The notes below the pieces were generated by a model. The model had not been told where the DNA came from and did no database searches. It saw only the letters and a list, made by a program, of their open reading frames with translations. From Escherichia coli (lineage in GTDB: Bacteria > Pseudomonadota > Gammaproteobacteria > Enterobacterales > Enterobacteriaceae): a stretch of DNA of 64,000 bases. The DNA lies in assembly GCF_003991155.1 (NCBI RefSeq), contig NZ_CP031293.1, one strand, 5' to 3'. The translations under genes and the position numbers were made by a program. Of this stretch, positions 33,598 to 37,644 are shown piece after piece (within the stretch, counting starts at the first letter, position 1; every line of letters begins with the position of its first letter).

Positions 33598-33775
33598 CAC
33601 CCGGAGAAGGTAAATCCCTCAAGGGGCAGCAACTCTGCCAGTCGCTCCTCCGGCCACTCCGGCAGACGTGTCAGGACGTCTGTCAGCCAGGCATGTGGCT
33701 CCAGACCGTTGCGTTTCGCGGTTTCCAGCAAGCTCATTATTTGCGCAGCGCGTTCTCCCGCCATACGACAGCCGT
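33598..33775 (-). mobile_element. IS66-family transposase (TnpC) C-terminal fragment
   Basis: The minus strand encodes ...GERAAQIMSLLETAKRNGLEPHAWLTDVLTRLPEWPEERLAELLPLEGFTFSG*, paralleling the C-terminus of the intact IS66 TnpC in this window (...[40 protein letters not shown]...). Confidence 0.5.
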
Positions 33776-33797
33776 CAGAGCAGTGCGTCAGCGGGCG

Positions 33798-35642
33798 GCA
33801 GTTTTACCTGGGGTGCTGGCAGAGGTGGTTATGGCAGCGCCAGCCGCGATAATATCCACAGCAACTATGATTCCGTTAATGAGCAGAGCGGTATTTTCGC
33901 AGGCCGGGGTTATTTTGATATCACTGTGGGGAATCACACTCAGCTCGATGGTGCGGTGATTGCTTCGACAGCACCTGCCGACAGGAACTCGCTGGACACC
34001 GGTACTCTGGGCTGGTCGGATATCCATAACCAGGCAGACTATAAAGCCAGCTATACCGGAATCAGTTTATCGGGTGGCTCAGGGATGTCAGCCAGCCAGA
34101 TGGTGGCCTCAAATGCAATAGCCGGTGCGGCGAACGCACTTACCGGTATGTCCGGCAGCAGTGGACATGCTGAAGGTACCACGTCATCCGCCATCAGCGG
34201 CGGAAATCTCATTATCCGTGATAAGGAGAGTCAGAAGCAGGATATTGCCGGGCTCAGCCGGGACCCGGAAAACGCCAACGGCAGCATTGCACCGATATTT
34301 GACAAGGAGAAAGAACAGAAGCGTCTGCAGGAAGCGCAGGTTATCAGCCAGATTAGCGGTCAGATGAGTAATATCGTAATGACGTATGGCGAAACTGAAG
34401 CGATGAAAGCAGCCTGGAAAGAGCATCCTGGCATGAGCGATGCACAGTTGCGGGAGACTCCGGAATACAGAGAGGTCATGAAAGGCTACGGTACGGGCAG
34501 TTCGCCGCAGATGGTGGTACAGGCCATCACGGGCGTGCTGGGCGGACTGAATGCAGGGAACCCGGGGCAGGTATTGGCGGGCGGTCTGAATCCGGCAGTG
34601 GCACAGCTTATAAAACAGTCCACCGGCGATAACCGGGAAGCAAACCTGATGGCTCACGCAGTCTGGGGTGCACTTGCCGCACAACTGGGCGGAAACAATG
34701 CGGCTTCCGGTGCTGCTGGGGCATTCAGTGGTGAACTTGCAGCCTGGTATATCATTGATAACTACTACGGTGGTCGTACCGATAACCTGAGTGAACAGGA
34801 ACGTCAGCAAATCAGCATGCTGGCCACCATTGCCTCTGGTATTGCGGGGGGACTTGCAGGCAACAGTACGGCGTCTGCCGGTACGGGTGCACAGGCAGGA
34901 ACTCGGCTGAAAACAATATGCTGAACGTGATAGCCACTGAAACAGCAGCTAATACGGCAGCAGCAATAGCTGGTGCTACAGGTAATGCCAGTAAGGATAC
35001 CGGGAATGATAATAGCTGGGATACCGGTGGTGTTACGCTGGCTACGGGAACAGTGTGCTGTACGTGATCCGAGTCGCGATGGCACCCGAGGACCGGGGCA
35101 TGTGCTGAATGGCGACAATACAGACGGAAACAAACAGCCGAATCTGGGCAAAGACGTAGCGAGCGCAACGGATAAGGATAAAGCTGAGCTTGGTGGTGCA
35201 GGTGCTGGAATACCGGGGGGGATGGGGACCGGATAATGAAGAAAAAGCCCGTCATCAGGAGGTTCAGCAACAACGATTTGATGAACTGAGTAAAATATAT
35301 GATAAAAGTCACCCGGCCGGAGAGTTAACGGTGGATGGGCAGACTATCAGGCAGAGTTCGGTAAGTAACCGTTATGGTACGACGAAAGTGTTTGAAAGCC
35401 AGACTTTGACGGATAAACAGATCCACAATTACGCACAGCAACTGGCAGGCGATACACCGCTGAAAGAGGTAAAATCGGGAATCTACACGTCTAAACTATC
35501 AGATGGTTCGGTAATAACACTTAGAAACATATCTACATCAGAAGGTCAGACAGGCGCTCGTTGGACTATAGATATTCGTAATAACCAAAAGCTTACTGAA
35601 CTGGGGAATAAATATTCACGTGTGGAGATTAAGTTCAAATGA
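33798..35642 (+). pseudogene. Orphan cdiA-CT module 1: displaced 3' fragment of a cdiA gene with frameshifts
   Basis: DNA and protein homology to the pre-toxin region of the main cdiA begins at about 33798 ([51 protein letters not shown]). The VENN-equivalent (AENN, 34906..34917) lies in a different frame from the upstream ORF, and the toxin part is split over at least three frames. Confidence 0.6.
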
Positions 35643-35995
35643 TTACTGAGTTAAGTGAAAGAGAATACAAGGAGTTGACAGACGCTGCAGAGGGACAGAC
35701 TCTTGATGCTATTTTGTGTTATTCAGTTCCTGATATTCACCCTGCAGAGTTTAGTTTTGCAGATAGAAGAGAAATCTTTTTTTGGGCATTAACCCGTCTT
35801 CTGAAAGAAGGGCGTATCAAACTCGCCAAGCACGGTAAGTTTTTGGAAGGAAGTGTTGACGAGCAGGTTGAGCGTTTTCGACAGGCATTTCCGAAAACAG
35901 AAGAAGAGATGGAAGACGGTATCTGGTTTTTTGATGAGAGTTGTCCGGGGGGGGCTGTTTGGGTGCTTGAAGATGGCTCTCTCGAATGGACCTGA
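35639..35995 (+). CDS. Putative orphan CdiI immunity protein (module 1)
   Basis: Intact 118-aa ORF whose ATG overlaps the stop of the orphan toxin frame (ATGA overlap), the arrangement typical of toxin/immunity pairs. Acidic small protein; no family recognised. Confidence 0.55.
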
Positions 35996-37112
35996 TAACC
36001 CCTTCACAGCGCAGGATGCGGCGCAGCGAGCGTATAACAACGATATGGCGGCCTCAGTTTTTGGTACCGGAGGGAACGATACAGGCTACAACGGCAGCGG
36101 TACAGGGACTGGCCGGCGGTAATCTGAGTGCAGCCCTGGCAGGTGGTGCAGCACCGTATCTGGCCGAAGTGGTGAAAACCATGACCACAGACCCGGTTAC
36201 CGGTGAGGTGAATAAGGCTGCAAATGTGGCTGCTCATGCCGTGGTGAATGCCGCACTGGCTGTGGCACAGGGAAATAACGCTCTTGCCGGTGCTGTAGGT
36301 GCAGCCACCGGCGAGGTGGTGGGAATGATAGCCACACAGATGTACGGTAAGCCGGTGAGTGAACTGAGCGAGACAGAGAAGCAGACGGTCTCGACACTGG
36401 CAACGGTTGCTGCTGGCCTGGCCGGTGGTCTGGTGGGCGACTCGGGGCTTCAGCGGTAGCCGGCGCACAGTCAGGTAAGACGACTGTTGAGAATAATTTA
36501 CTTGGCGGTAGTGAAGATGCTCAGGCTGCGTGGATACGCCAGCATGGTATCGACATGGCAACATGTGCAGAAAACCCTTCTGGTGCCGCCTGCCAGAAAG
36601 CAATGAATGAGAGGGATGCTGTAGGGCTGGCTCTGGCAACAGGTACAGTGGCACTACTCCCCGGTAGTGCTCAGGCTGTGTGGGGACTGGGAGCAAGTGC
36701 GAATGCTGGTATCAGTTATCTGGCTGATGGTACTGTAGATCCGACAAACGCAGCCATTGCAGGCTGGGTGAATGTGTTCAGCATGGGTAATGGCCTGGCG
36801 GGGACTGTGGGCTGGAATGCGGCAGGTGGTGCGCTGGGTAACTGGATTGACAACAAAGATCCTCTGTCTGGTGCAATTTCAAATGGTATCGGTTCTGCTG
36901 CCGGGTATGGTATCGGTAAAGGTATTACTTGGGGGACAGATAATATTACGAATGCTGTAGGAAAATGGGTGACAAATGGCTGGGATCCTAAGTACGATCC
37001 AACATGGATAAAATATGCTGAAGTAAATCGTAACGATATCATTCGAGAAGGCATGAAACCGAGCAATGTTCTTGGAACTGCTGGAGATATTGGCGGTTCT
37101 ATAGGATCCTAG
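35996..37112 (+). pseudogene. Orphan cdiA-CT module 2: cdiA 3' fragment with a frameshift; glycine-rich predicted membrane-active C-terminal domain; no immunity gene follows
   Basis: Homology to the main cdiA pre-toxin region ([28 protein letters not shown] ... [20 protein letters not shown]) runs up to a VENN motif (TTVENNLLGG) reached only after a frameshift near 36455. The C-terminal roughly 185 aa are Gly/Ala-rich with GxxxG-like spacing. Confidence 0.5.
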
Positions 37113-37162
37113 CTAGGTGGAAAAGTAACTTAGTCTGCAAGGATCAGGAGTTACAGACGGCA

Positions 37163-37348
37163 TTGGCTTTACGCTTACCGTTTTTTTACGCGCCAGAACA
37201 AGACTATGATAGCGTTGCCCTTATAGACGATCACATTATCGTCCACTCCGACTTTGCGCAACTACTGTAGAGTGGTGTACTCCGCGGCTTCTTTGAGGAT
37301 CTCAACTTCCATGTTTTTTTACCCAGCAAGGGCTGTAACTCTTTTATT
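37163..37348. repeat. About 180-bp segment, copy B of the direct repeat (copy A at 11205..11383)
   Basis: See copy A. Here it overlaps the 3' end of the minus-strand OrfA-like gene 37231..37644. Confidence 0.6.
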
Positions 37349-37644
37349 TTTATAGCGGCAGCCAGTTCTGAGGCAGGAACAACATCCTCTCCGGTAGTAA
37401 CAGCAGCGAGACTTCCTTCCAGGTATTGTTTTTTCCACTTAAACAACAGACTGGGCTGAATACCATGCAAATGCGCCACATGGGACACCCTCATGCCAGG
37501 CTCCGTTGTCTGCTGAATAATGGCAATTTTTTCCTGAGGAGTTTTACGTTTACGAAGCTCCTGCCCCAGCAAAGTTCCAGTTATCTCAAAATTAGAACTA
37601 GTGTTAGACATATATCCAAGCCTATCTCTTATTTTAAGATACAT
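37231..37644 (-). mobile_element. IS3/IS66-type helix-turn-helix transposase accessory gene (OrfA-like), probably remnant
   Basis: HTH_Tnp-type region ([44 protein letters not shown]). A run of seven A (GGTAAAAAAACATGG) near the 3' end resembles a -1 frameshift slippery site, but the -1 frame ([16 protein letters not shown]) stops after 16 codons, so no transposase catalytic ORF follows. Confidence 0.5.

Follow-up and report, generated by a model that had tools for sequence, protein, structure and literature searches.

NC101-type Escherichia coli strains of phylogroup B2 carry, downstream of cdiBAI(NC101), an orphan cdiA-CT module in which a glycine-rich domain follows a VENN motif and no immunity gene follows that domain. 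This locus raises the question of what kind of toxin the module encodes and why it stands without immunity. An initial annotation of the 64,000-nucleotide stretch of chromosome analyzed here (the window) had proposed a pore-forming or ionophore-type effector and an immunity gene that was deleted or located elsewhere. We conclude with high confidence that positions 35996-37129 of the window are a decayed orphan module of a group 6, type 10 ionophore toxin in the array after cdiBAI(NC101).

The second orphan module and its decay

In the annotated NC101 genome, cdiA (encoding the NC101 tRNase) and cdiI are followed by IS remnants, nanY and nanX, a transposase remnant, a first orphan consisting of a PT-VENN fragment, a small CT and a DUF596 immunity gene, the second orphan, a partial transposase, and pgtP. 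The module at 35996-37129 is the second orphan, which the NC101 RefSeq record describes as a "frameshifted; incomplete" VENN pre-toxin pseudogene and a 185-aa hypothetical protein. Like all orphans, it lacks both a start and the N-terminal part of CdiA. The features of the module are as follows, in window coordinates.

35996..36485 (+): cdiA-derived pre-toxin (PT-VENN) fragment, 5'-truncated; matches CdiA pre-toxin regions of homologues
36444..36447 (+): G-run with a 1-nt deletion (GGGG versus GGGGG), from DNA alignment with the in-frame homologue L025
36486..36497 (+): VENN motif, the start of the CdiA-CT, from the translation; ENN is invariant in family alignments
36486..36659 (+): predicted group 6 entry domain, CT residues 1-58, helix-loop-helix; 57% identity to the CT-M15-type entry domain and AlphaFold model
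36564-36566 and 36591-36593 (+): entry-domain Cys27 and Cys36, both conserved
36660..37109 (+): predicted ionophore domain, CT residues 59-208, truncated inside the last helix; homology to CT-M15/o10-type domains and AlphaFold model
36891..36917 (+): glycine zipper G136-SAA-G140-YGI-G144, a GxxxGxxxG motif
37110..37112 (+): premature TAG; TCC TAG here versus TCT GAG (Ser-Glu) in intact copies, from alignment with the intact L002 module
37113..37129 (+): final stretch homologous to intact cdiA-CT (codons for LGGKVT), from DNA alignment with L002
37130..37349 (strand not assigned): fragments resembling both ends of IS66-family elements, from DNA matches; they stand in place of the module's 3' end
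37231..37644 (−): IS3-family transposase orfA remnant, an ORF with 85-92% DNA matches to IS3-family transposases

The pre-toxin fragment begins directly after the stop of the immunity gene of the first orphan, retains ~490 bp of pre-toxin homology upstream of VENN, and changes frame along its length. The deletion at 36444-36447 throws VENN and the CT out of the pre-toxin frame and creates a stop at 36457-36459, and the ORFs at 35853..36122 and 35986..36459 point to a second frame change near 36070-36077. A metagenome copy (L005) reads in frame through the pre-toxin region; either the frameshift state varies or the L005 assembly contains a homopolymer error.

At the 3' end, identity to the intact L002 module extends up to a breakpoint after 37129, with none beyond. 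Together, the nonsense codon and the breakpoint leave the CT short of its last 16 residues, while the last nine codons and the entire cdiI are gone 3' of 37129. IS-derived DNA starts at 37129, i.e., 17 bp past the stop and not ~70 bp as initially described: window positions 37126-37178 match DNA flanking IS66 tnpA in ECCRA-119, positions 37179-37349 match DNA adjoining the end of ISEc23 in WP3-S18-ESBL-08, and the IS3 orfA remnant is labelled as a frameshifted, partial transposase in NC101. Because IS66-end and IS3 remnants follow 37129, we conclude that the last nine CT codons and cdiI were removed by an IS-associated rearrangement. The plus strand contains no ORF of ≥40 aa between 37113 and 37425, and the cognate 85-aa CdiI of intact relatives (see below) had no tblastn match in the 64-kb window, in agreement with the earlier statement that no immunity ORF follows the CT. 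Judged by the concept of a functional orphan cdiA-CT/cdiI module (Poole 2011), this copy is not intact: it has the TAG at 37110-37112, the breakpoint at 37129, no cdiI, and a VENN motif split from the pre-toxin frame. The initial annotation had overlooked the pre-VENN frameshifts, the premature stop, and the 3' truncation.

A 1405-bp query across the second orphan was 100% identical in at least 30 records (30 listed), including NC101, NGF1, M-17, and Combat2C1, and the query was covered to 80% or more in 55 genomes. Thus, at least 30 complete genomes share the exact decayed state of the window module.

Sequence, family, and predicted structure of the toxin domain

CdiA pre-toxin sequence precedes VENN in the window, and PF04829 is recorded on homologues. 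Counting VENN, the CT comprises 208 residues, and the frame from VENN runs to the TAG at 37110-37112. The length of roughly 185 aa given earlier is not that of the CT; rather, it matches an ORF of 185 aa that begins at an internal ATG (36555..37112, plus strand; RefSeq CDS WP_001335046.1, hypothetical protein). Translated in the frame of this ORF, the region reads "AGAQSGKTT-VENN-LLGGSEDAQAAWIRQHGIDMATCAENPSGAACQKAMNERDAVGLALATGTVALLPGSAQAVWGLGASANAGISYLADG...NGIGSAAGYGIGKGITWG...GDIGGSIGS*". The description of a VENN motif (36486-36497) followed by a Gly/Ala-rich C-terminal domain with GxxxG-like spacing is borne out, and the peptides quoted for it are present in the sequence. Gly and Ala account for 32% of the CT overall and 41% of residues 46-146 (~17% in typical E. 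coli proteins), charged residues make up only 6% of residues 46-146, and there are seven GxxxG units, among them G136-x3-G140-x3-G144. In an alignment of 92 diverse homologues, invariant columns are limited to G140, Y141, and G144.

Halvorsen et al. (2024, PLoS Genet; PMC11630599) unified the EC93-type toxins as "type 10" α-helical CDI ionophores, which have an N-terminal entry domain, a predicted five-helix ionophore domain, and a CdiI of 72-100 aa with two transmembrane segments. In that scheme, the GxxxGxxxG zipper is the sole element common to all groups, identity between groups is only ~20-39%, and six entry-domain groups each have a defined inner-membrane receptor. Two group 6 toxins were tested, CT-M15 and, as the second, CT-O91:H8; both caused target depolarization in the DiBAC4(3) assay, were blocked by their cognate CdiI, and required dtpA/dtpB in the target. 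CT-O91:H8 was more DtpA-biased, and entry variants inside group 6 are reported to shift receptor preference (PMC11630599).

We identified the M15 CT via the primers in S4 Table of PMC11630599, which encode VENNLLG, VLGGSEW, ATGSVALL(58), ...EAGK*, and the CdiI start MKRLLI; all of these strings were found in the 3' end of E. coli M15 cdiA and the downstream 77-aa ORF. Primer M15-L58-EC93-P88-rev puts the M15 entry-domain boundary at L58 within "ATGSVALL" (PMC11630599). Across all 208 residues, the window CT shares 51% identity with CT-M15 (E 3e-66). For the entry domain, the identity is 57% to residues 1-58 of a CT whose DNA is 97% identical to that of CT-M15. The window entry domain reads "VENNLLGGSE...C-x8-C...ALATGTVALL(58)PG" and has the same ATG(T/S)VALL end as M15. 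In addition, the O91:H21-cdiI primer encodes MKCQSL, with which the ORF downstream of family member P0118 begins. Based on the identity to CT-M15, the shared end of the entry domain, and the MKCQSL/P0118 match, we assign the window CT by homology to group 6 of the α-helical CDI ionophore family. The ionophore function and the DtpA/DtpB dependence of the window CT are inferred from the ~51% identity to CT-M15. The cognate two-transmembrane CdiI of 72-100 aa expected directly downstream is absent in the window copy and has 85 aa in intact homologues; it is missing here because it was deleted and not because the toxin is of a different kind. The family is already known, and the feature in the window is a pseudogenised copy of a characterized toxin family.

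CT-M15/CdiI(M15) is the closest characterized pair. CT-M15 is likewise a VENN-delimited CT of ~220 aa with a 58-residue entry domain containing a Cys-x8-Cys hairpin, it has the same ionophore-domain architecture and glycine zipper, and, as in the M15 pair, a small hydrophobic immunity ORF overlaps the stop codon in intact relatives of the window CT. The window entry domain is a sequence variant (57% identical; "SEDAQAAWIRQHGIDMATC" against "SEWLQTEKTREHGADVLSC"), and the last third of CT-M15 is only ~43% identical to the window CT. Moreover, the window copy, unlike the M15 pair, is a pseudogene without cdiI.

CdiA-CTo10(EC869) is a group 2, SecY-dependent ionophore (Jones et al. 2021, PMC7858069). 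We identified the o10-type module by its cdiI primer (MKLINPLKINK) and by its location in FRIK944, directly before the gene annotated as CdiA-o11. Using hhalign, the window-family profile matched the o10-type ionophore domain with a probability of 96.6% (E 6e-10), the alignment spanning the zipper and the last-helix motif "G(D/N)IGGSI..E". The two ionophore domains are 31% identical over 122 columns, including the "DP..G.I..G.GS..G.GIGK" zipper; however, the segment from the zipper helix to the last helix is ~30 residues longer in the window family, and the o10 entry domain is unrelated (~125 aa, no Cys, receptor SecY). CdiA-CT(EC93), the founding CDI ionophore (group 1, AcrB-dependent), is of the same toxin type according to the PSI-BLAST and AlphaFold analyses in PMC11630599 and has a small two-transmembrane immunity protein, while its entry domain and receptor differ from those of the window CT.

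Other group assignments were also considered. A group 2 (SecY)/CTo10(EC869) assignment had been suspected on the grounds that the module precedes another orphan in M15 and EC93 and that its first ~58 residues also occur on the EndoU protein P0318; it was ruled out by the real o10-type module in FRIK944 with its unrelated entry domain. A group 4 (YciB) assignment had been based on elimination among three Edwardsiella ictaluri ionophore orphans and on the Cys pair; it was dropped in view of the published Eict entry domain of 142 residues and its cdiI, which starts MRLNSTNK. Among the remaining groups, the 1473e cdiI primer (group 3, AcrB) encodes MKQLYSYV, the start of the ORF after a "SWNQYA.NNLTPEQ"-type CT, and TMC005 (group 5) begins VENNSLA, as does the N-terminal variant P0106. 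In hhalign comparisons, the window family had no match to the o11/TA271-type entry domain and matched a group 3 CT (the L009 main CdiA) in the last-helix motif only, with a probability of 2%.

An AlphaFold model of the repaired CT together with 92 diverse homologues, of the kind that had been called for initially, is all-helical with ~7-8 helices in total. Its mean pLDDT is 63, with values of 70-85 over residues 10-140; an earlier run with a shallow alignment of 36 sequences had reached a pLDDT of 46. The entry domain is modelled as a hairpin of helices 10-25 and 34-52 (pLDDT 76-85) flanking the Cys27/Cys36 loop, followed by four long helices, 60-81, 86-99, 104-121, and 126-162 (with the zipper inside), a short helix 172-180, and a fifth long helix, the last one, 199-223, with a pLDDT below 50. 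The model agrees with the published five-helix description, without firmly establishing how the bundle would pack.

Intact relatives and the cognate immunity gene

Homologues of the window CT extend 16 residues past the window stop ("...GSIGS-ELGGKVTDKVSEELKK"). Over the 208 residues that they have in common, the intact E. coli CT and the window CT are 97.6% identical (five substitutions). In intact copies, the CT is followed by an 85-aa hydrophobic CdiI ORF (L002:6933-7190) with a 4-nt overlap with the CT stop. This cognate CdiI (WP_000877779.1) has 85 aa and two hydrophobic stretches ("MKYSSRVVIGKFIICSSILLLCFIGMILAAIITKLTFVALAWFQSGIFEVLWSDIVYAAQLGGLGGGILGFCWVLLYLFRAKGFS"). Of the two explanations initially offered for the missing immunity gene, deletion is supported by the overlapping 85-aa cdiI in the 98%-identical intact copies, whereas a location elsewhere received no support within the window. 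The immunity gene adjacent to the CT in close relatives indicates that the window copy is simply truncated; the initial annotation had listed this outcome among those that would refute its reading.

The CT with cdiI occurs in three settings. It forms the end of cdiA-sized genes in 2014C-4587, PS2Canimalfeces12, and ST130; the cdiB-cdiC-cdiA locus of ST130, the one cdiA-sized locus examined in this respect, is disrupted. In O157:H7 FRIK944, it forms the sixth orphan of an EC869-like locus. In the third setting, a fragmented CT and an intact cdiI lie downstream of an Ntox25-type cdiA on the EC93 plasmid pCP127 and in M15. Based on annotation, CFT073, Nissle 1917, and ATCC 25922 have the same cdiI and the same flanking annotation. 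The intact E. coli modules (ST130, 2014C-4587, and FRIK944; CT end ELGGKVTDKVSEELKK) have the same pre-toxin type as the window; however, they are in frame, 16 residues longer, and accompanied by cdiI, whereas the window copy has frameshifts, the TAG, and the IS-mediated 3' deletion.

A search of 5.8 billion proteins identified 232 CT homologues in Enterobacterales and Aeromonas. The best 120 of these 232 are all short (up to 362 aa), and many have PF04829; therefore, these 120 are orphans or fragments from contig ends. Of the 231 relatives found by a profile search of 1.84 billion representatives, some have the domain as the C-terminal part of a protein of 600-2500 aa. Of 5426 complete E. coli genomes, about 261-273 contain the cognate cdiI. 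The 30 named genomes with the window junction are all absent from a sample of 60 evenly spaced records out of 262 cdiI carriers, while ~7 would be expected there if all of them carried cdiI. Substitution by another immunity protein is unlikely because CdiI-M15 (77 aa) and the 85-aa CdiI have no significant similarity and because members of the group are reported to form distinct cognate pairs.

Function of the ancestral module and alternative explanations

By homology to experimentally studied relatives, the ancestral module would have encoded a group 6, type 10 α-helical CDI ionophore toxin. As part of a full-length CdiA, the CT would have been delivered into the periplasm of a neighbor, where the 58-residue entry hairpin, probably disulfide-stapled, is predicted to use the di/tripeptide permeases DtpA/DtpB. 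The C-terminal glycine-zipper helical bundle would then insert into the inner membrane and dissipate the membrane potential, while the 85-aa CdiI encoded directly downstream would block the toxin in the producer. Because the window copy has no start, frameshifts, a premature stop, and a truncated final helix, we infer that it is not translated as a toxin. It likely makes no toxin and confers no immunity, and probably represents neutral debris that became fixed in the B2 lineage. Since the copy is a pseudogene remnant, a "toxin without immunity" is no puzzle.

It could be argued that the 185-aa ORF at 36555..37112 (WP_001335046.1) is a live, stand-alone membrane-active protein made from its own ATG, given that this ORF is uninterrupted, is an annotated CDS in RefSeq genomes, and is 100% conserved in the at least 30 records listed. 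However, the ATG sits within the entry domain, causing the loss of helix 1, and has no obvious Shine-Dalgarno sequence before it; at its other end, the ORF stops 16 residues short of the end of the final helix. Moreover, CT-M15 is reported to be toxic in the cytosol only after precise processing of its N-terminus, a working ionophore would be expected to poison its own cell in the absence of immunity, and 100% identity among clonal B2 genomes reflects recent ancestry and not selection. We therefore consider a live protein very unlikely, although, given the RefSeq CDS, a fragment may conceivably be expressed. A role of the module as a recombination cassette is likewise very unlikely. According to this idea, the CT would be swapped into the upstream cdiA(NC101) via shared pre-toxin sequence to switch the toxin, in line with the proposal that orphans are reservoirs of toxin/immunity diversity that keep cdiA homology upstream of VENN (Poole 2011), and the ~490 bp of such homology is still present here. 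Yet a recombination event upstream of the frameshifts would carry these along, the incoming CT would be truncated and contain a stop, and no cognate cdiI would accompany it, making the recombinant inactive or suicidal.

The decayed ionophore module also has to be weighed against a CT that is a nuclease or another soluble enzyme in which the Gly-richness is incidental. Nucleases make up most E. coli CdiA-CTs (Table 2 of PMC11630599), and on P0318 the same entry-type N-terminus is joined to an EndoU nuclease. Against this, Pfam, NCBIfam, and PDB sequence searches with the CT gave no match, and Foldseek searches of the PDB with the all-helical model gave no hit at E ≤ 0.001 and no enzyme fold; thus, no nuclease or soluble-enzyme fold of the kind that would have contradicted the initial ionophore proposal was found. 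The only matches in the PDB sequence search were chance ones to AmtB transmembrane helices. With 6% charged residues across residues 46-146, a cognate immunity protein that is hydrophobic (85 aa, two hydrophobic stretches) instead of a soluble inhibitor, and direct homology of the CT to toxins that depolarize cells experimentally, an enzymatic function has almost no remaining probability, and the initial proposal of an ionophore-type effector agrees with the assignment of the CT to group 6. Pore-forming colicins (A, B, E1, Ia, K, and N) and Ntox25 also depolarize the inner membrane and are countered by membrane immunity proteins. However, the pore domains of colicins are cation channels of 10 helices that need no receptor, and Ntox25 forms a β-barrel, whereas the CT model is all-helical with ~7-8 helices; neither the colicin pore-forming Pfam family nor Ntox25 (PF15530) matched the window CT even at E ≤ 10.

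With the module read as a decayed group 6 ionophore orphan, the feature in the window is an ordinary, already known one, and the value of the analysis lies mainly in annotation. The pieces are now "hypothetical protein" and "VENN motif pre-toxin domain-containing protein" in RefSeq; a better label would be a pseudogenised group 6 CDI ionophore orphan lacking cdiI. We speculate, while regarding it as improbable, that the entry variant "SEDAQAAWIRQHGIDMATCAENPSGAAC" has a receptor preference different from that of CT-M15 (DtpA-only, another POT-family permease, or an unrelated permease), in which case the persistence of the immunity-less remnant throughout the lineage would show that loss of the last 16 residues of the final helix disarms the ionophore. 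The locus is a clear case of IS activity eroding orphan toxin/immunity arrays. Within B2, NC101-type strains keep the dead toxin and have lost the immunity gene; in contrast, the EC93 pCP127 and M15 loci have a fragmented CT and an intact cdiI, and CFT073, Nissle 1917, and ATCC 25922 have that cdiI as well. This difference may affect which neighbors inhibit which strains.

Decay of the orphan modules

At the breakpoint of orphan module 2, the decayed cdiA-CT downstream of cdiBAI(NC101), two short pieces abut directly (window 37126-37349), without a transposase in between. The first matches sequence that flanks an IS66-family element on its tnpA side, and the second corresponds to the far end of ISEc23-like elements. 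The segment resembles an IS66 derivative, either miniature or with an internal deletion.

In NC101-type strains, the CT remnant is kept and cdiI is gone. The reverse decay state is found on the EC93 plasmid pCP127 (L030 13407-14274) and in M15 (L012 5407-6266), where the CT is split into ORFs of 125 and 63 aa, but its cognate 85-aa cdiI has stayed intact, at 98-99% identity. Further cdiI matches were found in CFT073, Nissle 1917, and ATCC 25922; the broken CT was read at the EC93 and M15 loci.

In a metagenome contig carrying the same truncated locus (L005 1515-2564; protein P0001), the pre-toxin/VENN junction is in frame, and the state of the homopolymer frameshift is, therefore, not uniform across assemblies; this reflects either real variation or assembly error.

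Erosion is also evident in orphan module 1 (window 33668-35995), which contains the following features:

33668..34924, pre-toxin ORF that stops at ...AGTGAQAGTRLKTIC and does not reach VENN
35190..35642, separate CT-like ORF of 150 aa
35639..35995, intact DUF596-type immunity gene, following the CT-like ORF

Complete orphan ORFs and the group 6 entry domain

Some orphan copies of the module 2 CT family are complete ORFs, as in Mixta calida (L032-L034 6001-7100; P0014) and in the proteins P0004 and P0319. In place of CdiA sequence, these ORFs have a short N-terminus before VENN, similar to a lipoprotein signal peptide (MKRIRKALTWMLCAVMLSGAVAC...), and a 77-aa CdiI comes after the complete ORF. 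The complete modules sit within a CDI locus, adjoining an integrase and a gene for a ParE-family toxin.

The first ~58 residues of the group 6 entry domain also occur fused to other toxin domains (P0318, P0326, and P0336), one of which is a bacterial EndoU nuclease (PF14436). The shared entry-domain pattern is LxGG.E..Q....HG.D..SC..(N/D)P....C, and the connector to the other toxin domains is a longer, hydrophobic, Gly-rich segment. These fusions fit the modular entry domains known from the literature.

Orphan array of O157:H7 FRIK944

In the EC869-like orphan array of O157:H7 FRIK944 (L014 and L015), a small hydrophobic ORF lies downstream of each of at least five modules:

Positions 5, 6, 8, 9, and 10 (our count), modules with a small hydrophobic downstream ORF

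Using such an ORF as the criterion for a putative membrane-active orphan toxin, approximately half of the FRIK944 orphans are putative toxins of this type. The SSuT resistance element interrupts the orphan at position 9, the same as published for EC869.
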